This document shows, in pieces, positions 5,790-29,477 of a DNA stretch of 64,000 nt. Within the stretch, counting starts at the first letter, position 1; each line of letters starts with the position of its first letter. The DNA comes from Eubacteriales bacterium (GTDB taxonomy: Bacteria; Bacillota; Clostridia; Oscillospirales; CAG-272): NCBI GenBank assembly GCA_045637205.1, contig JAZTYY010000078.1, positions 952 to 64,951 on the forward strand. Reading direction: 5' to 3'. A model generated the notes under the pieces. That model ran no database searches. It was not told the origin of the DNA and saw only the letters and a program-made list of their open reading frames with translations. The position numbers and the translations under genes are program-made.

Positions 5790-5837
5790 ACAAAAAGATC
5801 ATAGGCGCATATAGATCATATCCCATATATGCGCCTA
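5790..5837 (-). terminator. strong hairpin TAGGCGCATATA-N12-TATATGCGCCTA ending the defence operon
   Basis: 12-bp perfect stem at 5802-5813/5826-5837. On the minus strand it is followed by CTTTTTG. Confidence 0.7.
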
Positions 5838-5861: not shown

Positions 5862-7613
5862 TTAACCTGTTGCACAGTCTGATTTTGTGAAATCAAACGG
5901 TTGGCCTATTCTTGATAAGACATTACCATATTCTTTTAATAATTCTACTGTCGATAATTCATTTAACCGAGCAACTCGTTGAATTGGATATGTCAGCAAA
6001 TTATCCTTAATATCAAAAGATCTCAGATATGTATCACACTCTGATATGTAATCATAAGCCTGTTTTATAGACTCTAAAGAGGTTGAAACATCCGAGCCAC
6101 TAAAATGGTTATCTACCAAAAGTTTTTGGCTATATATCTTCGAAATCACCGGTTTAACCATCTCATAACGAAGTCTATAGTTCGGTGTCATAGCACAATA
6201 AAAAGTTGTTTCGCTTTCAAAGGATTCAACATCTATAGACGACATTCCATCAATCGCAAAGGCACACAAATCGAGAAGTTCGAAAGGCAAAACTTCATAA
6301 TTTTGGAAAATAACCGCAGGTCTTTTCATATCTGTTTTTTCATCGCAAAAACAAGAAAGATCATACTTATATTTCACTTGAGGATTGTCCTTAATCTTTA
6401 ACAGGATTGCTTTATCAAGTTTGCGTTTTCCATCTTTTCTTAAAACAGTATCGCAACTTTGAGTGACCAATATATAATACTGATCTTTGATTTTGAAAAT
6501 ATCACCAGTCGCTATTTCAGAATATCTGGCATTAACACCGATATCATACAATTCTTTTCTGCGAACATTAGCCATAATTTCATTAATAGGATGTAGATTG
6601 CCTGGTTCCTGTGGCGCTCTTTTGCAAATTTCTTGGTATAACTGAATATGTTGGCATATTTCCTCTTGCTTATTAGTCAGTAATACACCATATTCTCTAT
6701 CATAAAAAATACTAACCAATCTTGCAATAAAATCAAAATGTGATTCTCCGTTAGCCTCAACCTTATTTGAAAATATGTAATCCAAGGTTTTTTGATCAAT
6801 TTTCCTTAGTGCAGCAATTGTCGGATCACAACTATCTCTCAAGCAGTTTATGTAAATATCCATCAGCATATAGCACTCCTTGCGCTTAAAACCAAAGGCT
6901 AGGCTTTTTGCAATTTTATCATAATTCTTCCCAAGCACTTTGTTTTTGCTGATGTAATAAATAAATGATGGCTGTTCTGCACCACTCTCAAGCAACAGTT
7001 GATCGAAATCTTTTGCTACATCCTCTTCTCTTTCCGAGGTGCTATTTATGGTTGTAAGCATGAATATATACTGTTTCACTGATTGGTAAGTTTTGACTTT
7101 GTTTTTAGCAAATTCAATTCCTGCTGTGGCAGATTCACCCACATTTATAAAGCTTTTATCTATCAACCATAAAATAGCCCCATTTGTCATGCCGGCTGAT
7201 TCAGTATCATAAACTTCAGCTTCGTGTGTGTTGGAAATCGTTACGTATTTTTCAATCATACCATCCGACTTCAGTTTTTCCAAAAAGGCCGTTATTCCCG
7301 TTCTTTCTCCTTCAAGATTCTCCTTAGCAGAAGGATATAATTTAGAGCACTCCTTAACCTGCTCAATAGTCAAGCTATCTATTAATTCTTGAACGAGTTG
7401 CGAGTGATCCATACCTAATTCTTGAAGTTCTTCAATTTCCTCCACCTTATCACTTTTTTCAAAATCGCACATCAATGCCTTAATAACATCAAACGAAACC
7501 ATGGCAGAAACAAACAATTCGTCGCGGAGTTCTTTTTCATTGGTGTCGGCGAAACAATCATCCACACTGATAACATATTTGATATTCTCTAACTCAAATA
7601 ATCTATTTAGCAT
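5862..7613 (-). CDS. receiver (REC)-like domain protein with an uncharacterised C-terminal domain of about 340 aa (candidate effector)
   Basis: YVISVDD (D18 D19), ILWLIDKSF..G..AGIEFAK (D152), YIFMLTT (T187/188) and FIYYISK (K223) give the CheY-like DD/D/T/K signature. There is an insert of about 90 aa after beta1. GGGAGG RBS lies 21 nt after the upstream stop. Confidence 0.55.
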   Translation of the reverse strand: MLNRLFELENIKYVISVDDCFADTNEKELRDELFVSAMVSFDVIKALMCDFEKSDKVEEIEELQELGMDHSQLVQELIDSLTIEQVKECSKLYPSAKENLEGERTGITAFLEKLKSDGMIEKYVTISNTHEAEVYDTESAGMTNGAILWLIDKSFINVGESATAGIEFAKNKVKTYQSVKQYIFMLTTINSTSEREEDVAKDFDQLLLESGAEQPSFIYYISKNKVLGKNYDKIAKSLAFGFKRKECYMLMDIYINCLRDSCDPTIAALRKIDQKTLDYIFSNKVEANGESHFDFIARLVSIFYDREYGVLLTNKQEEICQHIQLYQEICKRAPQEPGNLHPINEIMANVRRKELYDIGVNARYSEIATGDIFKIKDQYYILVTQSCDTVLRKDGKRKLDKAILLKIKDNPQVKYKYDLSCFCDEKTDMKRPAVIFQNYEVLPFELLDLCAFAIDGMSSIDVESFESETTFYCAMTPNYRLRYEMVKPVISKIYSQKLLVDNHFSGSDVSTSLESIKQAYDYISECDTYLRSFDIKDNLLTYPIQRVARLNELSTVELLKEYGNVLSRIGQPFDFTKSDCATG

Positions 7614-7634
7614 TTAAACGTCCTCCCAAAACAA

Positions 7635-10160
7635 TTACTTAATTGTAGCGGTAAGATCTATTTCAAACTTAAATAGATTTCCAAACTGATTTCGTTCACC
7701 TAACAAGCGAATTCTTGAAGAATGATATTTGAGATTGTTGGCAACTATATAAAGGCCGAGACCTCTGCCCTTGGCCTTTTTAGTTTCAAATGGCTCAAAA
7801 AGTCTGTTTTCTATATCCCTACTTATACCAACTCCGTTATCATATACAACCACTATTCCCTTGCCAACGCACTCGACAGTAAATGATTTCTCTTCAACAA
7901 GCTCATTTTTCTTAGAGAAGTCTAACCAATATTCGGAATTGTTGAAAAGATTATCAAATACTTGGTTTAACATGCCGCGGTTAACAGTAACCATAAAATC
8001 ATTAGGAACGTTTATTGTATAATTGATTTCATCAGCCTTGCATCTCTCATAATAAAAACTATGATGTTCTTCTATGAATTCCTTAAACGAAAATGTTTGC
8101 TTTTCAGATCTAACAAATTTCAATCCAGGATTGAAATACGACATCTGCTTTCTGAGTGAATCCAATGCATGGTTCACATAGTGGATATGCTTAACCAAGA
8201 CATCTAATGTTATACTTTGGGTGTTAGCAATAATAGAATTGTTTTTTGTCCGTATATTTCTTATGGAAGAATCAAATTCATGCGAGAACATCTCGACAGA
8301 AATTCCCAATCCTGCCAATTCAAACAAATCCTGTAATCGCACATTGACTTTTTCAAAATCATAAGTTATAGATTCCACTTGTTGAGCAAGGAATTTTTGC
8401 GTTTCCAATAGTTGAGCATACGTATCTGACAATTGCTTAATGTTTTCATACACTTGATCAAACGAAGCCTTGGTCTCAGGTAATATGAAAGGAATTTCCT
8501 CTATCTCAGCTTTTACAGATGAACATGCCTCTAAAGTTTCACTCATTAATCTCGTTTGAGCTACAGTTCTTTCATATGTCGTTTCTAATTTGTCTTTTAC
8601 TCTCACCACGGTTGGCTCAAATGATGCAGAAGGATTGCTTGGATCCGCCGTAGTGCTTATAGCCTGCTGCAAATATTCACGCATTGCAGCATTCAATTTA
8701 TTTCGATTTTTATTAATTCTCTTTATGGAATCAGTCAGTATTTTCTTAAAAGTACGGAAATAATTGTCCTCTACGAAACCTTCACGGTTAGTAGTTTCTT
8801 TCAAAACAGAATTATGATCTCCCGTTAGGTATACACAACCTATAACACTATCGTTTCTAAAATCAAAGAATGATCCGGTTGTTTTCGAAGAAGAAGACAA
8901 TCCCAGCCAGTCACCACCATCTCCTTCACCAAACCCCTGAACAATAAATCCATCTCTAACTACTTTAATACCATGGAATCTTTCTATAAACTCTTTGTAT
9001 TCCGTCTGACTTATCAGCTCGGAGTAACTTATTAAGTGATAAAAATCATCCAAAAACGTTTTGTCTAATGTGTATTCATATATTTCACATTCAAACCGAC
9101 CAGGATCTGCGGAAGATGCGTTTCCTTTCTCGCCATAAACGAGCTCCTCAAAAAGGCATTCATCAGCTGATGTGAAAACATCTTTTTCTTCCGCATGATA
9201 ATCAAAGTGCGATAAAGTTGTTTTCCATACATTCCAAAAATCATCCAACGAGGATCTATTCATAGAGAATGCATTTTGAAGAATTTGTTTAATCATATCT
9301 CTATTATAGAAAAATGATGATGTGTAGAATGAATTTAACACACTTTTTCCCGCTTCATAGGAAATAGTATGCTTAGCTCTAGCTCGCAAAAGCAGATCCT
9401 CAAAAATCGTATCTATTGGTTCTATAGATTGACCATTAACACTAGCCAATACTCTAAAACTATTCTCTTTACTTCTAAATGGGGAAACTATTTTATTTAT
9501 ACTATTGCTAAGAATATTAATCTGTTCTTGACTATTCCAAAGATCACTATTAATTAAATCCTTTATTACAATTCGCGTATACGACTTACTATCTTCTACG
9601 CTACGCTCATTTATAGTAACCGGGATTTGATCAATAGTGGTGTTCTTTAAGAAGTCACCCCAAGGAATAGTAACCGTATATTCAATATAAGAATTCTCGG
9701 ACTTGGTAATCATCTGCATATATCTACCCAGCTTTTGAACAGACAATCGTCCTAATCCTTTGTCACCAAGTGGATAGCGATGATATTTAGGTGTTGTTTT
9801 TTTCTCCTTTTTCATTTTCTTCTTGGGAGAATTGGACAACGTCAACCAGCCATTAACGATCGTCTGCAAATCCATTCCGCATCCGTTATCTGCAAGCTCT
9901 ATTTTACCCCGACATGAAATTTCGTTTATAATTTCCTCGTAGTTGGTATCAATAGTCAAGGAACAAAACTTCGCATCTGCATCGTATGCATTTTTAATCA
10001 ACTCTGATAATGCTGTAACTTCATCAGCAATCAAAGATTCTCCAAGCTTGTAAATTAGAGATGCATGAACACGAAACACCGCCGTCTTTTCATCAAACTT
10101 AGACACATCAGATTCGTAATAATCAGAGTTGCTATCAAACAATGAAAGTTGATCATTCAT
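7635..10160 (-). CDS. dual GHKL ATPase: N-terminal MORC/Hsp90/MutL-like HATPase_c_3 module plus C-terminal histidine-kinase core (H-box + HATPase_c)
   Basis: N-terminal module: ELIKNAYDA (N57), DNGCGM (91-96), GDKGLGR (132-138). C-terminal module: MFSHEF (H627), FDNLFNNSEYW (N-box), YDNGVGI (G1), FEPF (F-box), GRGLGLY (G2). The ATG overlaps the MTase stop by 8 nt. Confidence 0.65.
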   Translation of the reverse strand: MNDQLSLFDSNSDYYESDVSKFDEKTAVFRVHASLIYKLGESLIADEVTALSELIKNAYDADAKFCSLTIDTNYEEIINEISCRGKIELADNGCGMDLQTIVNGWLTLSNSPKKKMKKEKKTTPKYHRYPLGDKGLGRLSVQKLGRYMQMITKSENSYIEYTVTIPWGDFLKNTTIDQIPVTINERSVEDSKSYTRIVIKDLINSDLWNSQEQINILSNSINKIVSPFRSKENSFRVLASVNGQSIEPIDTIFEDLLLRARAKHTISYEAGKSVLNSFYTSSFFYNRDMIKQILQNAFSMNRSSLDDFWNVWKTTLSHFDYHAEEKDVFTSADECLFEELVYGEKGNASSADPGRFECEIYEYTLDKTFLDDFYHLISYSELISQTEYKEFIERFHGIKVVRDGFIVQGFGEGDGGDWLGLSSSSKTTGSFFDFRNDSVIGCVYLTGDHNSVLKETTNREGFVEDNYFRTFKKILTDSIKRINKNRNKLNAAMREYLQQAISTTADPSNPSASFEPTVVRVKDKLETTYERTVAQTRLMSETLEACSSVKAEIEEIPFILPETKASFDQVYENIKQLSDTYAQLLETQKFLAQQVESITYDFEKVNVRLQDLFELAGLGISVEMFSHEFDSSIRNIRTKNNSIIANTQSITLDVLVKHIHYVNHALDSLRKQMSYFNPGLKFVRSEKQTFSFKEFIEEHHSFYYERCKADEINYTINVPNDFMVTVNRGMLNQVFDNLFNNSEYWLDFSKKNELVEEKSFTVECVGKGIVVVYDNGVGISRDIENRLFEPFETKKAKGRGLGLYIVANNLKYHSSRIRLLGERNQFGNLFKFEIDLTATIK

Positions 10161-11532
10161 TTATCGTTTCCTCCCTTGTAAAAACTAATATATGTTCTCG
10201 AGTCATAGTCGTTTGAGATGCTTGTTCATCCCCTGTATAAGCACTTATTTCGGGCATTCTCTTGTTCAAGATTTTTCTTGAGAAACTTGTAACCGGCGCC
10301 ATATTATAGTGAGCCGCTAATTCTACCATTATATTATTCATATAAATCTCTTGTTTTGCTATTTTCCTATTTCCCAAAGTCCACACTGATACAGCTCCGG
10401 ATTTCATTCTATTAGAAATAGCTGAAAGGAAATTATCATAATCACTATAAAATGCCACCATTTTATTTACTTGCTTTTCTGCGTGTTCTCTAATATAGTC
10501 ACGCTGTTGTTTTAATGTTGCAGATCGGAGCAATACGCGTTCTCTTTCTACGGTCATTGAGCTTTTGGTTGATTTTCCTCCCAAAGATACATTATCTATA
10601 CCATAAAGCGTGGCCAAGACCGTCTCATCAAAATTATCATCTATATCCAAACAATTTATCCACCTCAAAGGCATAACTGAATATTGGCCATATGAAACGG
10701 TAGTATGATTATCCCCATATGGAGGTGATGTTAATATCAAATCAAATTTTCGTCTGGTTTTCTTCAAATATTGAATAGAATCTCCTAAAACAATCTGAAC
10801 ATCGCCCTTATATCTATTCCCTTCTTTCTTTATATATCCAGATTTATTTAATGTGTTATAAAACGAAATGTATTTTTCCACATTAAAATCTAGGGTATTA
10901 TAAAAAATTTCTATTGCATCTTTATCGTAATTCTCAATGTCCTTTTCTTCTTTTATATGCAATTTGTAAGTACAATCTCTTGAATTAGATACGATTCGAA
11001 CAACCTCGCAAAACGTTGCCCAAAAGAAACGTCTAAACACAACATCGGTTTCTTTTAATATGTTGAGACGAATCAACGACAAATCTGCTATTGCCTTTTC
11101 TGTAAACCATTTATCTATACCATTAAAGCTGTGCTTAGGAACATCATTTGCAAATGTAGCTATAGATTGTTTCAAGGCTTCTGATTTTTGCTGTAATGTC
11201 TTAATCTCAACAATCGTTGTTTTTACTTTGCACAAAAGAATCGCTAACGGATTTACATCAACACCAACTATGTCTAATCCTCGCAACATACCTTCTACTA
11301 GAATAGTTCCAGATCCTGCAAAAGGATCTAACAAACAAGGCTTTGGGTTTTCCAAATTCAAGAGACAGACATCCAATATTTCCCTTTGCATCTTTGGAAC
11401 CATCATCGCCGGATAGGTACAAAAACCATGTACATAATCTCTTTCGCTTTTACTATTGCCCCTATAATCCCAGTGATCCTCTGATTCCAGTGTTAATTGA
11501 TTGAATTTTGTTTTCAAATTTTCTATACTCAT
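10153..11532 (-). CDS. DNA methyltransferase, amino-MTase type (N6-adenine or N4-cytosine)
   Basis: TYPAMMVPKM...LLDPFAGSGT (AdoMet motif) lies about 200 aa before LILTSPPYGD (catalytic SPPY). ATG at 11532 (MSIENL) has a GGTGGA RBS. The track start at 11553 has none. Confidence 0.75.
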   Translation of the reverse strand: MSIENLKTKFNQLTLESEDHWDYRGNSKSERDYVHGFCTYPAMMVPKMQREILDVCLLNLENPKPCLLDPFAGSGTILVEGMLRGLDIVGVDVNPLAILLCKVKTTIVEIKTLQQKSEALKQSIATFANDVPKHSFNGIDKWFTEKAIADLSLIRLNILKETDVVFRRFFWATFCEVVRIVSNSRDCTYKLHIKEEKDIENYDKDAIEIFYNTLDFNVEKYISFYNTLNKSGYIKKEGNRYKGDVQIVLGDSIQYLKKTRRKFDLILTSPPYGDNHTTVSYGQYSVMPLRWINCLDIDDNFDETVLATLYGIDNVSLGGKSTKSSMTVERERVLLRSATLKQQRDYIREHAEKQVNKMVAFYSDYDNFLSAISNRMKSGAVSVWTLGNRKIAKQEIYMNNIMVELAAHYNMAPVTSFSRKILNKRMPEISAYTGDEQASQTTMTREHILVFTREETINE

Positions 11533-11669
11533 TTTTTCCACCACAAGAAACATCGACTATAGTGATGTCGATAATTCTTTTGCCTTCTCTCTATTCTTCG
11601 GGAATGTATTACAGTTGATAACCAATATATGCGCCAATCAAGAAGTTCGTTGAATAGCACACAAACACC

Positions 11670-12056
11670 TTATTTAAATATTTCTGATATAGTTCTCAAT
11701 ATTTCTTGGTCTGCCGGGCAGAACTCGAAATTCGGTATTTCACTCGCTGCGATCCATTTAATATCGTTGTGTTCTAATTTTTGCGGTTCACCTTTGGATA
11801 TGGTAGCGTTGAATAATGTTAGATGTACTGTCAAGTCGGGATACTCATGGACTACATCCATAAATATGTCACCAACAGATAGCGTCACCCGAAGCTCTTC
11901 TCTACAGTCGCGAATTAGCGCTTGCTCTTTTGTTTCTCCTGGCTCGACCTTGCCACCAACGAACTCCCAAAGAAGTCCTCTCGCCTTGTGAGCCGGACGT
12001 TGGCAAATCATAAATTTATTGTTTTTCCATATAAGAGCTGCAACAACTTCTGTCAT
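11670..12056 (-). CDS. NUDIX hydrolase, MutT/NudG-like
   Basis: Nudix box GGKVEPGETKEQALIRDCREELRV. ATG at 12056 is preceded by GGAGGTG. The longer track start is TTG. Confidence 0.85.
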   Translation of the reverse strand: MTEVVAALIWKNNKFMICQRPAHKARGLLWEFVGGKVEPGETKEQALIRDCREELRVTLSVGDIFMDVVHEYPDLTVHLTLFNATISKGEPQKLEHNDIKWIAASEIPNFEFCPADQEILRTISEIFK

Positions 12057-12092: not shown

Positions 12093-12995
12093 TCAAATCT
12101 TCTTAAAGAAATCTACATCAATTTCATATGTAGTAATCGGTTTGACTCCAATCCCATATTCAGCAATCTTATTTATGAATTCTTCTCCATCGATAAGATC
12201 AATTTGCTGCTTGCCAGGATTTGATGCCTCTTCTTTAGCTGCTTTTGAAAAAGAACCTGTAGTAATCATAACACCCTTTTCAATATCGGTCGTCAAGGAT
12301 CCACGAAAATCACGAATTTCGCCTGCTCCAACTAAACCTTTATACCTTTTGCATTGAAAAGCAACGTTAAAACTGAAAATACCGTTAATTCGCAGTTTTC
12401 CTGTTCCATCAATTCCACCGTCTCCAGACTTCTTAGTAACCTCTACCTGAGAAAAACCACATTCTCGAAGCAATCTTTGAGATAATCTTTCAAAGGCATA
12501 TGGATCCATGTTTTGAAGTACTTCTGCTAGTTGTTCTCTCCATGGCTTTGCCTCGTCAGGATATTCCGCATAATCGTTTGTAGGATCATCATCCTCAGGA
12601 ACGTTTCTTGCGACCCACGGAGCGTTTTGGGCTGCCTTATTGCCGGACTTATTTCGATTATTCTGTACTACTGAATCAACAATAACTTTGCTGTCAATTG
12701 TATCAACCGAAACATAATCCGGTCTAATTGTCCAAACGCCTCTAGCACTATTCTCAATTACTCCGTAAAGTCTAAGGTAGGTACGTGCCCAATCTGCTTG
12801 ATAGGATAGCTCAGATTTATTAGTTCGTCCCTTGTGCAAAATATCAACCACTTCATCGGGAATTTTCATGTCCAAAATAATCTGATCCAATATTTCTTCA
12901 TTCTTTCCCGATCCACCAAGCTTCTTTAAAGCAATGAAAGTGGGAAGTATAAGCTGACCATATCTAGGAATTCTTTTATCTATCTTTTGTCTCAT
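12093..12995 (-). CDS. mrr: Mrr-family type IV (modification-dependent) restriction endonuclease
   Basis: N-terminal Mrr_N-like winged helix (ILPTFIALKKLGGSG...). C-terminal Mrr_cat: FERL...LL...GF..V.VT.KSGDGGIDG.G...FQCKRY...VG..EIRDF.G. AGGAG RBS. Confidence 0.85.
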   Translation of the reverse strand: MRQKIDKRIPRYGQLILPTFIALKKLGGSGKNEEILDQIILDMKIPDEVVDILHKGRTNKSELSYQADWARTYLRLYGVIENSARGVWTIRPDYVSVDTIDSKVIVDSVVQNNRNKSGNKAAQNAPWVARNVPEDDDPTNDYAEYPDEAKPWREQLAEVLQNMDPYAFERLSQRLLRECGFSQVEVTKKSGDGGIDGTGKLRINGIFSFNVAFQCKRYKGLVGAGEIRDFRGSLTTDIEKGVMITTGSFSKAAKEEASNPGKQQIDLIDGEEFINKIAEYGIGVKPITTYEIDVDFFKKI

Positions 12996-13107: not shown

Positions 13108-14082
13108 TTAAAATTGATTATTTTCTCTCAACAACTCACATAGCTGATGTGCTACGTACCAAAACATTACGGGAGGAATTGCATTTCCTAACGCCCTATA
13201 CTGAGCACCTTCTACTCCAACCAACTTAAATGTTTCGGGAAAAGATTGAATCCTCGCAACCTCACGTGGTGTAAATCTTCTGTATCTGCCACCATCTAAC
13301 AATACAGGATCAGTGCTATTCAAAGACACCTTTGCTAAGTGCGAACCAACCGTATTGCAAGGTTTATTCAAGTCTTGAGCTGTGCCCTTGTTCATATCTC
13401 TCTTGGCTGCTCTCATTCCCTGAACTGCTTTTTCGCTAAAGAAGTATTTTTCGTCAACTTGGTTCTCTACCACATCGCCAAGAACAGCATAATCATATTC
13501 CACAAGCACATCCTCGGGAAATTCGTATTTAAATCCGAGATCATTTCGAATTCCAACGATAATTACACGTTCTCTCTTTTGCGGAACTCCAAAGGCAGCA
13601 GCATTGATAAGCTTATGTGTTACCTGATAACCTGATTTTTCAAATTCGCTTATAATAAGCGGAAATGCTTCACCCTTATTTGCCGACAATAATCCTTTAA
13701 CATTTTCTGCTATAAAACACTTCGGCTGCTTTTCTCTCAAAATTCTACACATTTCGAAGAACAGCATTCCACGCTCATCTTTGTATCCAAGTCTTTTAGG
13801 ATTTTGTGCAACAATCGAAAAAGATTGACACGGGAATCCGCCCGTAAGTACATCTATTTCAGGAATCTCTGATGCCGGGACAGTTCTAATATCTCGTCTA
13901 TCCGGAATCACACCAAAATTCTCCTCAAATATACGGCAGGCACTTTCCTCTATATCATTTGCATAAACAATTTCCATTGGATTCTTGGTATAATTATCGC
14001 CAAGAAAATCAAAGCCACCAAGCAATCCAACATCCGTTCCTCCGCAACCGCAGAAGAGCGATGCAACCTTTAAGCTCGCCAT
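13108..14082 (-). CDS. DNA (cytosine-5)-methyltransferase (M2)
   Basis: Motifs LFCGCGG (I), GGFPCQSFS (IV), ENVKGL (VI), QKRERVIIVG (VIII), GNAIPP (X). The ATG overlaps the endonuclease stop by 13 nt. Confidence 0.9.
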   Translation of the reverse strand: MASLKVASLFCGCGGTDVGLLGGFDFLGDNYTKNPMEIVYANDIEESACRIFEENFGVIPDRRDIRTVPASEIPEIDVLTGGFPCQSFSIVAQNPKRLGYKDERGMLFFEMCRILREKQPKCFIAENVKGLLSANKGEAFPLIISEFEKSGYQVTHKLINAAAFGVPQKRERVIIVGIRNDLGFKYEFPEDVLVEYDYAVLGDVVENQVDEKYFFSEKAVQGMRAAKRDMNKGTAQDLNKPCNTVGSHLAKVSLNSTDPVLLDGGRYRRFTPREVARIQSFPETFKLVGVEGAQYRALGNAIPPVMFWYVAHQLCELLRENNQF

Positions 14083-15539
14083 GTTAACAACTCCTCAAAC
14101 GCCCCAACAACCTTGGGATCAAATGTAATATCTGCACCATCTGTCGGAATCATATCGATCATATCCTTTTTATAAAGTCCAACGGGATCTTGCAGTAGGA
14201 ACAACTTTCTTTCGCCTTTGCTTATCATCAAACGATATACATAATAACGATCACGAGTGCTATTCGCAGTATTCCACTCGTTTTTAGTCAAATGAATCTT
14301 GTTGAAATGCAAGGGCTTTGCGCTGATTGTGGTCTTTACTTCAATATAGCGCTTTCTTTCATCAAGCTCAACAGAGCTGATATCATATCCAACTGCAAAT
14401 TGTGTAGGAATACGCTTTATCAGATGGATAAGATCTTCACGACCACCAATTTTGATTCTCATGCACTCATGGCCATGAACAAGATTCTCTCCAATATCAC
14501 CGATGTCCTTGGTAGTGAAATCATCAACGCCTGCTCTTAAGCGTTCGCCTATGATTTCTTCGCTCTTGATCTTTTCTTTTTCTATCGCCTCAGTATCACT
14601 CAATTCCTCTGCTCCGCTCTTCAAAGCGGTGAGCTCTTCGGCATCGGCTGCAATATATGCAAGAATATCCGTAGAGAAATCTGTATCAGACATGTCACGA
14701 TTCACGAAGTTAAACCAGCCGATTTTGCAATCATTTATTGCTTCGAGTGTTCCTGACTTAGCTTTGATCATAACATCATATTGATTGAACCATTCAGTCG
14801 ATTCAACAAATTTTATAATAGCATCTTCTTCAAGAGAATTGAGATAATATGTTCTGCTATCGTACGTAACCAGAAGGTTGGCAATCTCCATGTAATCGAC
14901 GATATCGCCTGCATAGCGAATCACATCGCCTGTCTGATCATATGTTAATCCCAATCTGCGGTTTTCCTTAATTCGATTCCATGTCAAAGCAACATCTTCA
15001 TTATCACGAGTGCATCTCAAATCGTTAAATACGCAATGGCAGATCTCAAATTTTGTTAGACCGATATTCTTTCCTTCTTCTGAACACGCATGCTTCAACA
15101 ATTTGAGAATATACTGTGCCGGTTTGAAATGAATTCCATGCTCAATCTGTTCTAACACAGCATGAGATTTTATATGTGCGCCGGGATATTGGAAGCTATA
15201 GAGATACGCCTTGAAAAACTCGACCAAGTCTTGTTTTTCTGCCAACTCAATAGCACGTCTGCCGGGCTTAGCGGTAGATTCATTTTGCTGAATAAAACCG
15301 AACAGGGAGGAGATTTCCGTTCTCCAGTTATTGATTGTTTTCAGTTCTCTGTGTGCGTTTCCGGGATATCTATAGATCGCAGCATTTATTTTAGAGACAA
15401 ACTCATCAACGGGCAATTCCCCTATTGCGGTCAATTCTTCTGCAAAATATATGAGTACATTTTCAATATCGCCTTTGAATCTAGGGCGGACATGATGTAT
15501 GCGAAAATAATATTCACTTGGAATACTGTATTCACTCAT
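14070..15539 (-). CDS. putative type II restriction endonuclease with a DUF3883-type PD-(D/E)xK C-terminal domain
   Basis: C-terminus GYDISSVELDE.KRYIEVKTT.....F..IHLTKNEW..A.....RYYVYRL is DUF3883-like. The gene is sandwiched between two m5C MTases with gaps of 2 nt or less, or overlaps. Confidence 0.6.
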   Translation of the reverse strand: MSEYSIPSEYYFRIHHVRPRFKGDIENVLIYFAEELTAIGELPVDEFVSKINAAIYRYPGNAHRELKTINNWRTEISSLFGFIQQNESTAKPGRRAIELAEKQDLVEFFKAYLYSFQYPGAHIKSHAVLEQIEHGIHFKPAQYILKLLKHACSEEGKNIGLTKFEICHCVFNDLRCTRDNEDVALTWNRIKENRRLGLTYDQTGDVIRYAGDIVDYMEIANLLVTYDSRTYYLNSLEEDAIIKFVESTEWFNQYDVMIKAKSGTLEAINDCKIGWFNFVNRDMSDTDFSTDILAYIAADAEELTALKSGAEELSDTEAIEKEKIKSEEIIGERLRAGVDDFTTKDIGDIGENLVHGHECMRIKIGGREDLIHLIKRIPTQFAVGYDISSVELDERKRYIEVKTTISAKPLHFNKIHLTKNEWNTANSTRDRYYVYRLMISKGERKLFLLQDPVGLYKKDMIDMIPTDGADITFDPKVVGAFEELLTWRA

Positions 15540-15541
15540 AA

Positions 15542-16591
15542 TTAATCCTCCAATGCTTTTTCAAGCTGTTTTGCGATACATTCTGCCATAAGGGGCGGAA
15601 CCGCATTACCTACTTGTCTAAACTGTTGTGTTTTGTTACCTATGAATACAAAATCATCCGGGAACGACTGTATTCTCGCACATTCTCTTACGGTAGGAAC
15701 GCGATTGTACTTGTAATGGAAATGATGTCTATGTCCTGTGTCAATAGTCGGCGCAGGCTTTTGACTTGCAAATCGAGTCCATGCCACATGGAAGTTACGG
15801 CTGCTTCTATACTCTTCAGGCAAATCACGATAATTTCCACCATCGGGAACAAGAGAGATAATATGCTGTACTTTTTCCGAATGCGTAGCTGCAACATGGT
15901 TGTATACTTTGCGTGATTTCTCTCTCATGGTTTTTTGATATGCATTCTGTGGAGCAAATACATATTCTTGTTCTTCTTCACCCAATTCATCCGTAAGAGA
16001 TGGCAAATCAGAAAGAGCCATTTCGCAAGTCACAACATAATCAAGCGCGTCAGGATAGAAGAATTCGCTCTCGCCATTCTTCATTCCAACAAACACTACT
16101 CTCTTGCGATTTTGAGGCACACCATAATCCGCAGCACAGAGTATCTGATATTTAACCGTATATCCAAGCTCAGTAAAACGCTTGATGATATTATCTTTTA
16201 CTTCTCCGTTAAACAAGCCAACCAATCCCGGAACATTTTCAATAACAAATGCTCTAGGCTTGATTTCTTCTACCAAGCGTATGTAACTCAAATAAAGCTT
16301 GTTTCTCGGATCATTGAAGTTGCGAGGACCAGAAAGAGAAAATCCCTGACAAGGAGGGCCTCCAATAATAACATCAATGGTTTTATCGCCAATTACATTC
16401 TTGATATCAGCGTATCCGATTTCTGTGATATCACCACATATAGACTTTGCGCCATTATGGTTCGCTTCAAAGGTTTCAAGTGCTTTTTTATCATTGTCTA
16501 TTCCAAGGACTATGTTAAAGCCTGCGCGTTCAAATCCACATGACAATCCGCCTGCTCCGCAGAACAAATCTAATACATTATATTTAATCAT
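15542..16591 (-). CDS. DNA (cytosine-5)-methyltransferase (M1)
   Basis: Motifs LFCGAGG (I), GGPPCQGFS (IV), ENVPGL (VI), QNRKRVVFVG (VIII), TVRECARIQSFPD, GNAVPP (X). ATG at 16591 overlaps the HTH gene stop by 8 nt. Confidence 0.9.
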   Translation of the reverse strand: MIKYNVLDLFCGAGGLSCGFERAGFNIVLGIDNDKKALETFEANHNGAKSICGDITEIGYADIKNVIGDKTIDVIIGGPPCQGFSLSGPRNFNDPRNKLYLSYIRLVEEIKPRAFVIENVPGLVGLFNGEVKDNIIKRFTELGYTVKYQILCAADYGVPQNRKRVVFVGMKNGESEFFYPDALDYVVTCEMALSDLPSLTDELGEEEQEYVFAPQNAYQKTMREKSRKVYNHVAATHSEKVQHIISLVPDGGNYRDLPEEYRSSRNFHVAWTRFASQKPAPTIDTGHRHHFHYKYNRVPTVRECARIQSFPDDFVFIGNKTQQFRQVGNAVPPLMAECIAKQLEKALED

Positions 16592-16766
16592 TTTTGCTTT
16601 CCCTCGTCGTTCTTGCATCAATTGGTTTTTCGGCATCTTCCGGGATTACCCATGCATCTCCAAGTTTGAAAACGCCTTTAATTCTTCCTTCGGCACACAA
16701 AATTTGAACTCTTCTCTGCGAAATGTTCCACTTTCGAGCAGCTTGGCTTGCAGTCATGTACTTCAT
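16584..16766 (-). CDS. small HTH_17/excisionase-family DNA-binding protein (controller or Xis-like)
   Basis: MTASQAARKWNISQRRVQILCAEGRIKGVFKLGDAWVIPEDA matches the MerR-superfamily HTH_17 pattern. GGAGGT RBS. First gene behind the promoter. Confidence 0.7.
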   Translation of the reverse strand: MKYMTASQAARKWNISQRRVQILCAEGRIKGVFKLGDAWVIPEDAEKPIDARTTRESKND

Positions 16767-17307: not shown

Positions 17308-19194
17308 TCAAACCTCAATGGGGTCTTTTATTCCACAAATATCCTTAATAACATCAAAGATTTTTGCAAAATTCGAAAAATCAAAGTCTGCTGCATACTC
17401 ATCTTGATCTAAGATCAATTGTGCAAAATCATCCTTAGGCAATGCAACAGAATGTTGCATTTCTGGGTCATCTGCTACCATATAAACCTTTTCATCAATC
17501 ACCCCATTTATTAACACCTTATTTTTAATGCCACTAATACGCGTTTGATACTTTGCGTCCTTACCTATACCCGTTGAGTAGAATTCTTCTCCCAAAAACA
17601 ATCTACGCCCTTGAGAATCAACCTTCAACAAATCATCTTTAGAGTAATAGTGCTCAATAGACGTGTATTTTCCATACACATCTTCATTTACCATTGGAAT
17701 AGAAAATGCATAAATGTTAGGATATAGTTCAATATACTCTACTCCTGAATCTCCAACAGTTTTTTTGCATATTTCTTCATTGTCACGATCAAACATACCG
17801 ATCAACTTTCTGCTGGGAGAAGCAATATTAAACTGTTTCAAAAGTTCCATTAATGTAGTATCGCCCATTGTATCTTCATATTCATAGATATCTATGGGCA
17901 AGTCTAGACCAAGCTTCTTAATTGCTGATTTAAGATGCTTCCAATCACTCTTTCCTTCCGTAATAATGAGAGGTCTTTGAGATTTTTCGGTTTCTGCAAA
18001 TAACAAATTGTATTTTTTTGCAAAACGTTCATTCTCACTCACCATCATATTGTATACTTCTTCGAAAAGATCATTATTGTATGGTGTACACCTTAATCCA
18101 TTGTTGTCCAAATCAAATATCGAATAACATATATCTGCACTTTGCTCAAGTCCCAAATTAAAAAACGGAGAATGCGATGTTACTACAAACTGAACATTAG
18201 GAAACAGCTTCATAAGAGAAGGTAAAACTTCCTTCTGCAGTTTAATATGTAGGTGCTTGTCTATTTCATCTATAAGAACTACTCCCGATACGCTACTGAA
18301 ATCATGCTGAATATTGTCAGCTTGTCTGGTGATTTCTCCAAACAGACTAACTAATGCTAATTCGCCGGAAGACATATTGAATATTGATGGATATAAATGT
18401 CGGCCACTAATTTTTTCAATAATTTGGATTCTTGTAAAACCAGATTGACGCGGACCTATTCCCAGTCTTACTGGCACTTTAACCTTGGATCGTAACAATT
18501 CACTAAAGATCTTGTTTAGATGTTCCCAGTTTCTCTGAGCTCCAGTTTTATACAATTCGCTATCCAAGACTATATCCATAATCCAATTCGCAATATCTGG
18601 CAAATTAGAAGTTACTTCAATCGGGTTAGTCAGATATCCTGTAAATCCCATATCCTTCTTAAATGATAAAGATACCGCATATGGATCATTAAGATAAGAG
18701 GGTTGCTCATATCTATACGCCGGGAAATAAGTCATTAAATTTGACTCAAACAAGTTTCTAATCTTTTCCTTATCAGTTATGGTAAAGTATTTAACAACAG
18801 ATGATTTATCAGACTTATTTTTTAATGTAGCATATGCAATTGGATTTGAAATTTCAACATCTTGATTATAATTACTCTCATCACTTAAGTCACGTATATC
18901 AATATAATCAATATTTTCATTATCATCAACGAACCTCAGATAGACAAACGAATGTTTGGATTTGTCTAATACTGTAATTCCAGAAGATACTCTATAAAAT
19001 TTGTTTTCAATCCCCTCAAACTGAAAAGCAAAACCTTTCTTGGCAAATTCAAAAAAAGCATCTACCACATAAGACATTATAGTTGTTTTACCAGCCCCAT
19101 TTATTCCAGACAGGACTGTAATATTGCTATCAAAATTTAACTTCAAATTTTCGAACGGCGCTCTATTGAATATTTGCATTTCCTGTAACCGCAT
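17308..19194 (-). CDS. ABC/SMC-type ATPase (AAA_15/21-like) fused to a TOPRIM/DUF4435-like domain; fused AriA-AriB (PARIS-like) or class-1 OLD-like defence protein
   Basis: Walker A GINGAGKTT. Walker B and downstream VVLIDEIDKHLH....VVTSHSPFF. C-terminal IITEGKSDW (TOPRIM Glu) and GMFDRDNE (DxD). ATG at 19194 is preceded by GAGGAG. Confidence 0.55.
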   Translation of the reverse strand: MRLQEMQIFNRAPFENLKLNFDSNITVLSGINGAGKTTIMSYVVDAFFEFAKKGFAFQFEGIENKFYRVSSGITVLDKSKHSFVYLRFVDDNENIDYIDIRDLSDESNYNQDVEISNPIAYATLKNKSDKSSVVKYFTITDKEKIRNLFESNLMTYFPAYRYEQPSYLNDPYAVSLSFKKDMGFTGYLTNPIEVTSNLPDIANWIMDIVLDSELYKTGAQRNWEHLNKIFSELLRSKVKVPVRLGIGPRQSGFTRIQIIEKISGRHLYPSIFNMSSGELALVSLFGEITRQADNIQHDFSSVSGVVLIDEIDKHLHIKLQKEVLPSLMKLFPNVQFVVTSHSPFFNLGLEQSADICYSIFDLDNNGLRCTPYNNDLFEEVYNMMVSENERFAKKYNLLFAETEKSQRPLIITEGKSDWKHLKSAIKKLGLDLPIDIYEYEDTMGDTTLMELLKQFNIASPSRKLIGMFDRDNEEICKKTVGDSGVEYIELYPNIYAFSIPMVNEDVYGKYTSIEHYYSKDDLLKVDSQGRRLFLGEEFYSTGIGKDAKYQTRISGIKNKVLINGVIDEKVYMVADDPEMQHSVALPKDDFAQLILDQDEYAADFDFSNFAKIFDVIKDICGIKDPIEV

Positions 19195-19244
19195 GTTATT
19201 TTCTCCTCGTACTGACAATTGTGCTAAATGTGTATTACATGCAT

Positions 19245-21719: not shown

Positions 21720-24700
21720 CTATCTAGTCCAAGTAGCAGTCCAAGGATTCAAATATGCGCTACTTCCACCGCTTTTGGGTGCTATACTCTCTTCCTCTGA
21801 GTAATATGTTGAAGAAAGTGTTCTTGAAGAAAAATTTCTTTTGCCTTTATCAACCACAGATCCGCCAAAATACTCTGCCCAAGAAGCCCCTGTACCAGAC
21901 CAACTATTCGTTCCCATGACTATGATAGTTTTAACATTGTATAAAGCTTCAGGTTTAATAGTTTTTATGGATTCTGGAACGGTTATTTCTAACATCGTAC
22001 ATCCACAAAAAGTAAAATCTTCTATACATGTTATAGATTCTGGAATTGTTACGCTTGTAAGTGATGTACAATATGCGAATGCCCTCTCTCCAATGCTCGA
22101 TACGGAGTCGGGGATTGTTACACTTGTGAGAGATTTGCATTGATAAAATGCTCTATTGCCAATGCTTGTTACAGGCAAGCCATTATAGATGCTTGGAATA
22201 ATAAGATTGGAATCAGTACAAGTACCAACACCTGTTACTGAATAACTTTCGCCATCGTCATTGAGCGTATATTCAAGACCTTCGGAGGGATAATAAGTAA
22301 CCGTATCATCTTTAGCAATCTCACCGTCGGTGCAATAAATTGTATATTCTTCTGTATTAGTGTCCCAACGTTCGTGAAGCAAAATGGCTTTCCACTGCTC
22401 AACTGTACCTTCAAAATTAATTCTAGTAAGCAAGGTGCAATTACCGAATGTAGAAAAACCAATACTTGTCACTGAGTCTGGTATTACTATACTTGTGAGC
22501 GATGTGCAATCCCCGAATACACGATTACCAATACTCGTTACCGAGTCAGGGATTACTATACTTGTGAGCGATGTGCAATCACGGAATGCATAATCATCAA
22601 TACCCGTCACGGAATTGCCTATCACCACACTTGCGAGTGATGCACAACCCGAGAATGCAGAATGTCCAACACTCGTTACCGAGTCAGGGATTACTATACT
22701 TGCGAGTGATGCACAACCCGAGAATGCAGAAATTCCAATACTCGTTACGGAGTCTGGGATTACTATACTTGTGAGCGATGTGCAACCAGAGAATGCAGAA
22801 TTTCCAATACTCGTTACGGAATCTGGGATTATTATGCCCGCAAGCGATTTACAATATTCGAACGCACCATCACCAATGCTCGTCACGGAATTGCCTATCA
22901 CTACACTTGTGAGCGATGTACAATCGTTGAATGCACCCTTACCAATACTTGTCACAGAGTCAGGTATTGTTACACTTGTGAGCGATTTGCAAAAATAGAA
23001 TGCATACTCGCCAATACTTGTTACAGATTTGCCAATCGTTAAATTTGTGAGCGACTCGCACCAAAAGAATGCAGCCTCGCCAATACTTGCCACAGAGTCG
23101 CCTATAACTGCACTTGTGAGCGACTGGCACCCATAGAATGCATAATTACCAATGCTCGTCACAAAGTCTGGGATTGTTATGCTCTCAATTTTGTTTTCAT
23201 TATAGAAAGCATATTGATAGATACCATACTCTTTGCCGTCTTCATATTCGGGAAGAGTTAATGTAACATCATTGCCTGCATATTTTACAAGATATACATC
23301 TGTACCATCATCGTAGAATATATAGTCTCCAACGTATTTAATATAGGACTCTGACTCATCAGTAATAATATGCTTTGCGTAATAACCAATACGTCCATTA
23401 TCCTCGGAACCTGCAGTGATATTCAATGACGATTTGTCGCAAACTTCAATAAGTGAGTAGCAACCCGAGAATGCAGAATCACCAATACTCGTCACGGAGT
23501 CGGGGATAACTATGCTTGCAAGGGATGAGCAACTGAAGAATGCATCCTCACCAATATCTGTTACAGAATCGGGGATTATTACACTTATAAGAGAATTACA
23601 TCCATAGAATGCAGAATTACCAATACTCGTCACAGAATCAGGAATTACTATACTTGTAAAATCACATCCTGAAAATGCAGAATCACCAATAGTTGTCACA
23701 GAGTTGCCAATTGTTATATCTGTAAGTGCATAACACCTAGAGAATACACGCACGCCAATGCTTGTCACAGAGTCACCTATGACTACAGTTGTGAGCGATT
23801 CGCAACCTTCAAATGCATACTCACCAATACTCGTTACCGAGTCAGGTATTGTTACACTTATAATCGAATGACATTCTCGGAATGCAGAATTACCAATGGT
23901 AATCACAGAATCACCAATCGTTACACTTTCGAGAGAATTGCACCAATAGAACGCAGAATCACCAATGGTAATCACAGAATCACCAATCGTTACACTTTCG
24001 AGAGAATCGCACCCATAGAATGCAGAATCACCAATGGTAATCATAGAATCACCAATCGTTACACTTTCGAGAGAATCGCACCTATAGAACGCAGAATCAC
24101 CAATACTTGTTACAGATTTGCCAATCGTTAAATTTGTGAGCGACTCGCACCAATAGAATGCAGAATCACCAATACTCGTCACAGAGTTGCCTATCGTAAC
24201 GCTTACGAGACTATCACAATCTGAAAATGCGTTATCAGGTATGGATGTTGCTCCATCTTTTATTATAATCGTAGTAAGGTCACCAAGATCATCATAAGCA
24301 TATGGGAGTATTTCTCCTTCGAAAGTTATACTTTCAACATCAGAACCAGAACCATAATAAGTATCAAACGCCGAATCGGCTATAAATTTTGTATCTTTGT
24401 GAACAACACAATGCTCGTCCTTGAAATTATCTAACTTGATCAATGCATAATAAGGGTTGTTTGCATTACCAAGGTAATAAGTATCATAATATTTGTTAAA
24501 CACAAGCGAGTCGCAATCCTTAAACGCATTCTTTCCGATACTTGTTACAAAATCGGGAATCATTACACTAATAATTTTGTAATTACCATAAAATGCATAT
24601 TGATAAATACCATACTCTTTTCCACCCTCATATTCGGGAAGAGTTAATGTAACATCATTGCCTGCATATTTTACAAGATATACATCTGTACCGTCATCGT

Positions 24701-27700
24701 AGAATACATAGTCTCCAACGTATTTAATATAGGATTCTGACTCATCAGTAATTATATGCTTCGCATAATAACCAATATATCCATTATCCTCGGAACCTGC
24801 AACGATATTCAATGACGATTTGTTGCAAACTTCAACAAGTGAGTAGCATTCCCAAAACGCTGAGTCATGAATAGCCTTCACAAACTCAGGGATCGTTATA
24901 TTTGTTATCTTGCTATTATTACGGAATGCACAGTAATAAATTTCATAGTCTTTAAGCTCTTTATGTTCAGGTGAAGTTGCTTCAGTGTCGATACCTTCAT
25001 AATATTCAGGAAGAACTATTTCATTATCATTTCCAGTATATTTTACAAGATATACATCTGTACCATCATCATAGAATATATAGTCACCTACATATTTCAA
25101 ATATGATTCAGATTCATCAGTAATAATATGCTTTGCATAATAACCAATATATCCATTATCCTCGGAACCTGCAGTGATATTCAATGACGATTTGTCGCAA
25201 ATTTCAATAAGTGAGTAGCAACCCGAGAATGCAGAATCACCAATACTCGTCACGGAATTGCCTAATGTTACACTTGTGAGCGATTCACAATCCCAGAATG
25301 CACTCTCACCAACACTTGTCACGGAGTCGGGGATTATTATGCTTGTGAGAGATGTACAACCTTCGAATGCCCCATAACCAATGTATGTTACAGAATTGCC
25401 CATAGTTACATTTGTGAGAGAAATACAATCCCAGAATGCTAAATCACCAATACTTGTCACGGTGTCGGGGATTATCATGCTTGTGAGAGATGTACAATCG
25501 TCGAATGCCAATCCGTCAATAATCGTAACGGGAAGCCTATTGTACATATTCGGAATTACAATATCAGTATCTGTGCAAGTTCCAATTCCAATTACAGAAT
25601 AACTTTTTCCATCACTGTTTAACAAATATTCCAATCCAATAGAACCCGTTGCATACAAAATTCCACCTTCCACCAATACTTCTCCGCACACCGCACAGAG
25701 AGAATGATATTTACCATCTTCGGTTATAGTCGGTTCCAAATCAACAATCCATTCGCCTTCTGTATGTCCAAGTGCAGAAACTACTCGCTGTGCAACGAAA
25801 ACTTCATTACATCTTGAACAATGCTTACCCTGTGTAAGACCTGTCTCTGTACATGTGGGGGCTACCGCATTATCAATCACCGTAGCATGACCGAGAGCTT
25901 TAACTGTAATTTTTTTACGACTAAGTTCTTCGCCACACACTGTACAATATACGACACTATCATATGAACCTGATTCCGTACATGTAGGATCTATGTTGTT
26001 TTCTACAACCACACCGCTACGTGAATGGCCGAGTGCAGAAACAACCTTCTGAGCAACGAGAACTTCGTTACATCTTGAACAATGCTTTCCTTCGGTAAGA
26101 CCTGTTTCTGTACATGTTGGAGCTACTGCACTATCTATTACTTCGACATGTCCAAGTTCAGGAACTACTTCCTGTGCAACAAGAACTTCTCTACATCTTG
26201 AGCAATGCTTACCTTCTGTAAGACCTGTTGCTGTACATGTGGGTGCTACTGCTTTATCTATTACTTCTTTATGTCCAAGCGCTGGAACTACTTCCTGTGC
26301 AACAAGAACTTCGTTACATCTTGAACAGTGCTTACCCTGTGTAAGACCTGTTGCTGTACATGTAGGTGCTACTGCTCTATCTGTTACTTCAACATGACCG
26401 AGGGCAGAAACAACCTTCTGATCAACAAGAACTGCATTACATCTCGAACAATGCTTACCCTGTGTAAGACCTGTTTTTGTACATGTTGGAGATACTGCAC
26501 TATCTATTACTTCGACATGTCCAAGCGCAGGAACAACCTTCTGAGCAACAATGACTTTATTACAAACTGAGCAGCGCTTTCCTTCTGTAAGACCCGTTTC
26601 AGTACATGTGGGTGCTACTGCATTGTCTATTACTTCTGTATGAGGAAGTTTAGAAACGGTTTGCTGCGCTACTGTAACAGTTCCACAAACTGAGCAGTGC
26701 TTACCTTCGGTAAGGCCCGTTGCTGTACATGTGGGAGCTACTGCTTTATCTATTACTTCTGTATGAGGAAGTTTAGAAACGGTTTGTTGTGCAACTGTAA
26801 TAGCACCACAAACGGAGCAGTGCTTACCTTCTGTAAGACCCGTCTTTGTACATGTGGGAGCTACTGCTTTGTCTATTACTTCTGTATGAGGAAGTTTAGA
26901 AACGATTTGCTGCTCGACAAGAACTTCTCCACATCTCGAACAATGCTTACCTTCTGTAAGACCTGTCTTTGTACAAGTAGGTGCTACCGCCTTATCGATG
27001 ACCTCACTATGTCCAAGCGCGGGAATTACCGTCTGTGCAACTGTAACAGTGCCACAAACTGAGCAATGTTTGCCTGCTGTCAATCCAGTATTTGTACATG
27101 TTGCAGCTACCGCTTTATCAGCAACTTGAGTATGTGCCTTCATAGAAACGGTATTCTGCTTAACAGTAACTGTACCACAAACACTACAATGTTTACCTTC
27201 GGTAAGCCCTGTACTTGTACAAGTTGCTTCAACTGCGGGATCAACAACTTCGGTATGTGCTTTCATAGAAACTGTAGTCTGCTTAACGGTAACTGTACCA
27301 CAAACAGAACAATGCTTACCTTCGGTAAGCCCTGTACTTGTACAAGTTGATGCAACCGCGGGATCTGTAACTTCGGTATGTCCAAGAGCAGGAAGCGTTG
27401 TAGCTGAAACCAAAGTTTTACCACAATGTGAACAAGTCTGGCTTTCTGTTTTACCTGCTTTAGTACAGGTGGGGGCAACTGCGGGGTGTGTTACAGGTGT
27501 ATGGTCAGTTTTAGACACACGCTCTTGTCTTACAATAGTTCTATTACAAACCGAGCAATGTGAACCCTCTGTATATCCATATGTTGTACAAGTTGGTTCT
27601 ACCGCAGGATCAATCACTTCGGTATGACCAAGAGCAGGAATAACTTCTTGCTCAACAAAAGTTGTATAACATCTTGAACAATGAGAACCTTCGGTATAAC

Positions 27701-28235: not shown

Positions 28236-28387
28236 AACTTTTTCTTCTTTCACGTTTAAGCCCGTCGGCATTTCTACCTTAAATTTTACCACTTTTTGAA
28301 ATTATTGTCAAATAATATTATTATATAATAATATTTTCAGTAAAAACGACAAATTTAGGGACTATATTTTATAGACAATAGACAACA

Positions 28388-29473: not shown

Positions 29474-29477
29474 AAAC

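Follow-up and report, generated by a model that had tools for sequence, protein, structure and literature searches.

The 64,000-nucleotide stretch of contig JAZTYY010000078.1 (Eubacteriales bacterium) analyzed here, called the window below, carries a minus-strand operon of three genes. They encode a DNA methyltransferase (MTase), a histidine kinase with two GHKL ATPase modules, and a third protein, here called protein 3, that begins with a receiver-like domain. The MTase gene (10153-11553; 466 amino acids) is followed by the kinase gene (7635-10160; 841 amino acids) and the protein 3 gene (5862-7613; 583 amino acids). The stop codon of the MTase gene and the ATG of the kinase gene overlap by 8 nucleotides (ATGAATGA), and the kinase and protein 3 genes are separated by a 21-nucleotide gap containing GGGAGG. 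An intrinsic-terminator-like hairpin on the same strand (5802-5837), with a U-run (UCUUUUU) directly 3′, closes the operon. With its stem of 13 bp, the hairpin has a folding energy of −20.6 kcal/mol (z = −4.45), and none of 200 shuffled sequences was equally stable; a loop of more than 8 nucleotides explains why a simple terminator scan did not pick it up. Only these three open reading frames (ORFs) lie between the upstream Nudix gene and the terminator, and no antitoxin-sized ORF was found within the operon. An earlier note on this DNA, made from the sequence alone, had described three coupled minus-strand ORFs ending at a terminator with a 12-bp stem. The overlap, the gap, and the hairpin are all present, and every motif that it quoted, including H627 of the kinase and D152 of protein 3, lies where it had been placed.

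The MTase, the kinase, and protein 3 form a real unit that is conserved in other bacteria. Protein 3 represents a family of full-length homologues without Pfam annotation, and an exhaustive search with its profile gave at least 1,133 clusters (50% identity), of which 758 reached E ≤ 1e−10. Eleven genome loci were found in Clostridia, related metagenome-assembled genomes (MAGs), and Desulfosporosinus lacus, and the trio was present in the same order at all nine that had enough upstream DNA. At the 32 metagenome loci, the kinase accompanied protein 3 on every contig with enough upstream DNA and the MTase was present as well in 27 of 27; the exceptions to the full trio were contig ends. The trio was also found at eight loci of distant relatives, in which protein 3 is only about 17 to 27% identical. 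These eight, two of which encode the same protein (P0364), come from five relatives that were looked up (one of them on two contigs), with Bacteroidota-like contigs among them, a Hymenobacter plasmid, and the Rhizobium etli megaplasmid pRetMIM1f. A third database search, made with a broad alignment, returned the same close relatives again; no part of that alignment was sufficiently conserved to scan genomes with. Taken over its known members, the family extends across Firmicutes (including human-gut samples), Bacteroidota, and plasmids of Proteobacteria.

The surroundings of the trio change from locus to locus. None of the genes flanking it in the window recurs at the 11 genome-scan loci, where its neighbors are often conflict or mobility genes, among them TOTE, a McrB-like AAA_5 ATPase, an AAA_21 ATPase, and a MobL relaxase. 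A tblastn search with protein 3 found no copy in phage records, viral contigs, or plasmids; it was by way of the kinase that the trio was located on plasmids. The trio is host-encoded and travels as one unit between bacterial defense islands. The earlier suggestion that the three genes belong together is thereby upheld, by close and distant loci alike and with unrelated flanks.

Gene 1 encodes an amino-type DNA MTase (N6-adenine or N4-cytosine), as had been read from its motifs. The protein (10153..11553) matched PADLOC MTase_II at 2e−82 and scored 30 bits with Pfam N6_N4_Mtase and 33 bits with UPF0020. Motif I (DPFAGSGT) occupies residues 76 to 83 and motif IV (SPPY) residues 276 to 279, a spacing of about 190 amino acids. 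The true start is probably M8, at position 11532, since homologues align only from residues 6 to 8 and GGTGGA sits 5′ of the second ATG.

Gene 2 (7635..10160) encodes a putatively soluble dual-GHKL histidine kinase in which a paraMORC-type GHKL sensor, a middle region, and a coiled coil precede a DHp region with H627 and a CA domain. The N-terminal MORC/MutL-like GHKL module (residues 49 to 194; 9579..10016; HATPase_c_3, 1.1e−14) carries the motifs ELIKNAYDA (53 to 61), DNGCGM (91 to 96), and GDKGLGR (132 to 138). Over its N-terminal ~200 residues the kinase also matches the GHKL part of the BbrUII/HgiDII restriction enzymes in NCBIfam (1.3e−19), and weak coiled-coil-type matches cover residues 474 to 650 (Pfam, PADLOC). 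The DHp, or H-box, region spans residues ~614 to 680 (8121..8321), with a HEF_HK match at 618 to 644 and the sequence MFSHEF at 624 to 629; the codon for H627 lies at 8280-8282. The CA domain (residues 731 to 836; 7653..7970; HATPase_c, 1.8e−15) contains the N (737 to 742), G1 (774 to 779), F (788 to 791), and G2 (798 to 803) boxes.

Conservation of these residues was assessed in an alignment of 18 kinases (23 to 75% identity) from Firmicutes, Bacteroidota-like contigs, Rhizobium, Campylobacter, Acinetobacter, and Polaromonas. In the sensor GHKL module, E53, N57, D60, D91/G93/G95, and G132/K134/G135/G137/R138 are invariant. The phospho-acceptor H627 is invariant too, as are N737/N741, D774/G776/G778, F788/P790, and G798/G800/G802 of the CA domain. 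Residues 606 to 837 are homologous to solved histidine kinases in the PDB (E = 1.3e−8 with the 600-841 fragment and 6.4e−8 with the full kinase). H627 aligns on the H-box histidine of 9p6i, and the alignment with HK853 (2c2a) begins at residue 626. Because the catalytic residues are invariant and the core is homologous to solved kinases, both ATPase modules and H627 look functional. Two claims of the earlier note, that gene 2 contains two ATPase modules and that the region around H627 is a histidine kinase core, agree with these results.

The first 230 residues of protein 3 (6924..7613) are modeled as a receiver-like (βα)5 domain. In the AlphaFold model of the whole protein (5862..7613; predicted local distance difference test score [pLDDT], 85.5), this domain is followed by a helical linker and a C-terminal output domain. 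Its five β-α units occur in the right order, and a helical insert of about 90 residues (26 to 116; 7266-7538, minus strand) comes directly after β1. The residues expected of a receiver sit at the strand ends: D18/D19 at β1, D152 (codon 7158-7160) at β3, T188 at β4, and K223 at β5. Across relatives at 17 to 45% identity, there is no variation at D19, D152, or K223 and almost none at D18, and the position of T188 is occupied by serine in most relatives. Foldseek aligned the model with the Sln1 receiver (probability, 0.90; target template modeling [TM] score, 0.57; E = 0.3 to 0.4). The CheY-like DD/D/T/K signature that had been noticed in the sequence is therefore found in the proper strands of a receiver-like model, and the assignment of the N terminus as a receiver is moderately supported. 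Protein 3 itself had no Pfam, PADLOC, NCBIfam, or PDB-sequence match, and its family profile likewise found nothing in the PDB. In the Pfam check proposed for this domain, no match to PF00072 (Response_reg) at E ≤ 10 was seen in 40 members of the family, and neither these nor 10 distant relatives gave any other credible match.

The last ~340 residues of protein 3 had been called unplaceable. They can now be divided, with AlphaFold and Foldseek, into an all-helical linker (residues 231 to 355; 6549..6923) and a C-terminal output domain (residues 356 to 567; 5913..6548), the latter modeled separately with a pLDDT of 88.1 and a predicted TM score of 0.84. In these models, the output domain consists of a MazF/CcdB-like β-barrel core (residues ~370 to 461) and a variable helical/hairpin subdomain (462 to 567). 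MazF, YdcE, or CcdB accounted for 22 of the 23 top Foldseek PDB matches of the C-terminal model, and PemK endoribonucleases were also among its neighbors. The full-length model retrieved MazF/CcdB toxins as well, and the viral library gave weak matches to PemK-like and endoribonuclease entries. Judged by eye, the strands of residues ~370 to 461 can be matched in order to those of the MazF barrel. Overall, the modeled core weakly resembles the MazF/CcdB toxin fold.

The output domain has conserved features of its own. Its core motif reads GDIF...YILV(S/T)Q(S/P)CD, and D371, Q385, C387, R392, D448, G456, R546, and R568 are invariant in the family; the invariance of D388 is limited to closer relatives. 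Within protein 3, conservation is highest in the receiver core and the barrel and lowest in the insert and the last subdomain. Across loci, identity ranges from 24 to 53% for protein 3, from 41 to 75% for the kinase, and from 40 to 75% for the MTase, so that protein 3 has diverged at about double the rate of the other two.

Several members of the family depart from the common architecture of protein 3. A subfamily of 741 to 815 amino acids (P0259 to P0288; locus L011, 6359-8596) has an extra C-terminal extension of about 200 amino acids. These extensions were considered as a missing nuclease and set aside: they are poorly conserved and rich in Lys, Glu, Asn, and Ile, no catalytic motif is visible, and Pfam was empty for the two that were scanned. 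On one metagenome contig (L046, 2226-4688), the N-terminal part of the kinase runs into residues 229 to 576 of protein 3, an apparent internal deletion or fusion, and P0104, P0117, and P0119 (646 to 839 amino acids) may be similar fusions.

Related kinases with other partners were also found. On the Campylobacter jejuni plasmid CP132133.1 (4998-9463), a 736-amino-acid dual-GHKL kinase is encoded with a 340-amino-acid receiver protein and a convergent dcm C5 MTase; such loci are on conjugative plasmids. The N terminus of the 340-amino-acid protein gives a subthreshold match to Pfam Response_reg (2e−5; 24.9 bits versus a cutoff of 30.2). Its C terminus contains a GD...SCD motif as in protein 3 (hhalign E = 1.5e−4) and scores 18.8 bits against the protein 3 profile, compared with 12.8 for the best of 1,000 shuffled controls. 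The output domain appears to define an unannotated family that protein 3 has in common with shorter receiver proteins on Campylobacter plasmids. In Acinetobacter baumannii, a 637-amino-acid partner of a HEF_HK-type kinase resembles protein 3, by eye, in the order of its features (DD, a long insertion, D, LLTSH, K, and TQPCDL), and its hidden Markov model (HMM) score with the protein 3 profile was not significant. The Polaromonas plasmid pPNAP02 (4989-12322) carries a related dual-GHKL kinase with a 675-amino-acid partner in which homology to protein 3 was not detected. This pair is flanked by a giant protein with an FtsK/SpoIIIE domain and, in place of an MTase, by a PAPS-reductase-family gene, which might be a different DNA-modification partner.

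The novelty implied by the earlier note does not hold. Kinases with a HEF_HK domain (PF19191), mostly of the order HATPase_c_3, HEF_HK, and HATPase_c ("group 1"), were described in 2021 (Bellieny-Rabelo, Pretorius and Moleleki; PMC8011034). In that study, 91.6% of HEF_HK kinases were linked to receiver-like partners (PF19192), MTases were found upstream (mainly C5, with N6/N4 also shown), and restriction-modification (R-M) genes were enriched nearby. Its authors proposed that the kinases descend from paraMORC ATPases and suggested a regulatory link to R-M systems; the C terminus of the partner was left uncharacterized, and Firmicutes were among the set (PMC8011034). The kind of system found here was therefore already predicted computationally in 2021, and the trio in the window belongs to that known kind. 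The trio shares with these systems the architecture of the kinase, with HATPase_c_3 at 49 to 194, the H box at 618 to 644, and HATPase_c at 731 to 836 (Pfam), as in the soluble group 1. It also shares a partner of ~600 amino acids with receiver residues and long insertions, the upstream MTase, and the R-M and defense contexts. The Response_reg_2-type layout holds for protein 3 as well, with receiver residues at strand ends, the insert at 26 to 116, and the kinase adjacent at every locus.

Differences from the published systems were also seen. HEF_HK scores 20.9 bits on the window kinase (residues 618 to 644), just under the PF19191 cutoff of 24.1. The SHEF motif is present, and the homologues P0138 to P0141 and P0143 (64 to 73% identical to the window kinase) carry precomputed PF19191 annotation, so by its sequence the window kinase would be a borderline member. 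Unlike the published partners, protein 3 has no PF19192 match, in a scan that lacked a positive control; the MTase in the window is of the amino type, whereas theirs are mostly C5; and protein 3 has a modeled output barrel that is MazF/CcdB-like and contains a GD...Q-x-C-D motif. What may be new is a toxin-like output domain that carries a conserved motif, together with a cassette whose three genes, including one for an amino-type MTase, strictly stay together.

The trio was also compared with other systems. PADLOC 2.0 contains no system model for the pair of kinase and protein 3. Protein 3 gave no PADLOC matches, and the kinase matched REase_II with its GHKL part (1.4e−14) and otherwise only JetC, DruC, and DruG, through weak coiled-coil matches. 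Detocs, which Rousset and colleagues reportedly described in 2023, consists of the kinase DtcA, the buffer receiver DtcB, and the receiver-PNP effector DtcC. The trio would resemble it in using a His-Asp phosphorelay as an immune switch and in fusing a receiver to an effector. It differs from Detocs, as the earlier note had recognized, in lacking a PNP effector and a stand-alone buffer receiver; its sensor is of the GHKL type rather than TPR, a DNA MTase is obligatory, and no Detocs model was among the PADLOC matches. The only mention in DefensePredictor is a figure legend that names a predicted but unvalidated system with HATPase and REC domains.

Like the MORC and paraMORC ATPases of R-M systems (Iyer, Abhiman and Aravind 2008; PMC2292703), the kinase has an N-terminal MORC/MutL-type GHKL module with intact ATP motifs and is encoded beside MTases in defense contexts. 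A GHKL ATPase has also been proposed to control a fused effector in the GHKL-Shedu protein VcSduA (PMC12137116). In contrast with both, the GHKL module of the trio is fused to a complete histidine kinase transmitter, the effector would be a separate receiver protein, and no helicase or PD-(D/E)xK nuclease is present. The similarity to the type II restriction enzymes BbrUII and HgiDII is confined to the GHKL part within the N-terminal ~200 residues: it covers positions 4 to 204 of a 659-position profile at 70 bits, against a cutoff of 550 bits, and the rest of the enzyme is absent. The barrel core of protein 3 (~370 to 461) has MazF/PemK/Kid and CcdB as its closest structural neighbors. It differs from them in showing no significant sequence similarity, in its own invariant set (D371, Q385, C387, R392, and D448), in its fusion to a receiver, and in the lack of a separate antitoxin.

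We consider it about an even chance (probability, roughly 0.5) that the trio is a self-contained, methylation-gated phosphorelay module for defense or addiction, one of the R-M-linked two-component-like systems with a HEF_HK-type dual-GHKL kinase. The MTase would mark host DNA as self, and the paraMORC-type GHKL module, as an ATP-driven sensor, would engage DNA that is foreign or unmodified. Via the coiled coil, the signal would reach the DHp/CA core, where H627 would be autophosphorylated, and the phosphoryl group would be transferred from H627 to D152 of protein 3. Phosphorylation, probably via dimerization, would then activate the MazF/CcdB-like domain and stop the infection or the cell. 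This reading starts from what the sequences and models show: a strictly conserved set of three genes, catalytic residues that are intact in both ATPase modules, the histidine and the receiver residues, predicted folds, and a location in a defense island.

A number of results weigh against this reading. All steps of the mechanism beyond the anatomy are ones that we infer, and the methylation-dependent sensing by the GHKL module is purely of this sort. Literature searches found no experimental study of such systems and no phenotype data. The receiver is assigned from a predicted structure and the positions of residues, and the assignment is only moderately supported because no sequence model backs it. 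PF00072 and PF19192 matched none of the 62 family members scanned. The proteins without a PF19192 match were protein 3 and the 39 others in alignment A1, 10 distant relatives, and the third-gene proteins of seven further loci (L012, L016, and L018 to L022). A positive control for PF19192 was sought among kinase partners in Campylobacter, Polaromonas, and Acinetobacter, and none matched, so that this negative result lacks a control. A profile-profile comparison (hhalign) of the broad protein 3 family with CheY was not significant. The MazF/CcdB matches in Foldseek are weak (probability, 0.35 to 0.97; target TM score, 0.39 to 0.52; root mean square deviation, 2.9 to 12.5 Å; E = 0.067 to 1.0). 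By eye, the MazF β1-β2 loop with the catalytic arginine seems to be missing and a tight hairpin is found instead. An hhalign comparison of the protein 3 family with Bacillus subtilis YdcE was not significant either, and no nuclease motif was found in protein 3. As for the cassette, the gene order at one locus (L016) deviates, running kinase, protein 3, and MTase, and all three genes carry frameshifts in an Oscillospiraceae MAG (L009, 4030-9727), which is either a decaying copy or the product of assembly errors.

A broader proposal is that the family constitutes a widespread immune system in which a paraMORC clamp would sense methylation status and signal by a His-Asp relay to a receiver-fused MazF/CcdB-like effector with a Gln-x-Cys-Asp active site. 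We offer this version tentatively and regard it as rather doubtful.

The alternative that survives best, although we think it unlikely, is that protein 3 is a restriction subunit, whose C terminus would be a novel, phospho-activated DNA nuclease cutting unmethylated DNA in a kinase-licensed R-M system. The invariant residues D371, Q385, C387, R392, and D448 could bind metal or substrate, partnership with an MTase is typical of R-M, and the GHKL module of the kinase resembles that of the BbrUII/HgiDII enzymes. Judged as a classical type II R-M system, the locus provides a clear MTase, and Pfam, PADLOC, NCBIfam, and Foldseek revealed no endonuclease domain in either of the other two proteins. 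No known nuclease fold or motif was matched, and the only consistent structural neighbors are MazF, an RNase, and CcdB, a gyrase poison. The earlier remark that the trio contains no recognizable nuclease still stands after Pfam, PADLOC, PDB, and Foldseek searches.

Type II R-M systems are known to act as addiction modules, and the same circuit could serve a selfish purpose. Loss of the cassette would dilute methylation, the kinase would fire, and protein 3 would kill the segregants, with phage protection absent or incidental. The cassette is mobile (it has plasmid copies and variable flanks, and there is a resolvase in the window), the MTase is strictly retained, and the output fold is toxin-like. 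Against this stand its usual location among dedicated defense genes and the Oscillospiraceae MAG in which all three genes are broken; since this decayed copy exists, loss of the cassette would be survivable, at least stepwise. Defense and addiction are also not mutually exclusive roles. Overall, addiction as the sole function seems quite unlikely.

Still less probable is a regulatory two-component system, in which phosphorylated protein 3 would control the expression or activity of neighboring R-M genes and not act as an effector. This is the role proposed by the authors of the 2021 study (PMC8011034), and R-M genes are enriched nearby there, as in the window. However, neither Pfam nor Foldseek revealed a helix-turn-helix or other DNA-binding output in protein 3, and only its own MTase always accompanies the kinase and protein 3; because the flanks are wholly different between loci, there is no conserved target operon. 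The least credible alternative, which we give very little weight, holds that the N terminus of protein 3 is an unphosphorylated pseudo-receiver or capped HAD-like phosphatase paired with the kinase as a structural complex only: capped HAD phosphatases were retrieved by Foldseek at similar E values (3qut, E = 0.14), the insert after β1 resembles a HAD C1 cap, and receiver HMMs match nothing, but a receiver is favored over a HAD-like fold because the motif is DD and not DxD and the invariant residues lie at β1, β3, β4, and β5 as in receivers, the kinase keeps its invariant phospho-acceptor histidine and an intact CA domain, and the partner in the related Campylobacter system gives a weak Response_reg match.

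If the phosphorelay mechanism were correct, the trio would join R-M self-marking, MORC-type DNA-sensing ATPases, and two-component phosphotransfer, which have so far been studied apart. The broader immune proposal, if true, would add a new effector family and a new coupling of DNA methylation status to cell fate. The family is large and taxonomically broad, yet it is absent from PADLOC 2.0. Since the concept as such has been published, the value of further work lies in experimental validation and identification of the effector rather than in the association itself, and the trio offers H627, D152, E53/N57, and C387 as targets for point mutants.

In the window, the trio occupies one end of a minus-strand defense island, with the Nudix, Mrr, BpuJI-type, and OLD-like genes immediately upstream. 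The small Nudix hydrolase (11670-12056; NUDIX_4, 1e−21; PADLOC candidate PDC-S07, 9e−44) lies between the trio and an Mrr-type type IV restriction enzyme (12093-12995; Mrr_N and Mrr_cat; PADLOC PDC-S02, 1e−31). Both were considered as parts of the unit and rejected, being absent from the 11 genome-scan loci that were searched. A BpuJI-like endonuclease (BpuJI_N, 4e−103, with NOV_C) is flanked by two C5 cytosine MTases (13108-16636), and the three genes together look like a complete type II system. A 636-amino-acid ATPase (17308-19218) matches PtuA/AAA_21 models in its N-terminal part and the Toprim region of retron-type "RT-Toprim" models in its C-terminal part and is probably an OLD-family nuclease. 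All of these genes are on the minus strand, as are two further genes, one for a 2,190-amino-acid protein made up largely of BspA-type leucine-rich repeats (21720-28292; LRR_5, 2.5e−252) and one for a WYL-domain protein (28481-29494). Downstream of the terminator, the segment 4022-5742 encodes a protein with a TipAS antibiotic-recognition domain, a peptide deformylase, and, on the opposite strand, a serine resolvase, whose proximity hints at mobility of the region.

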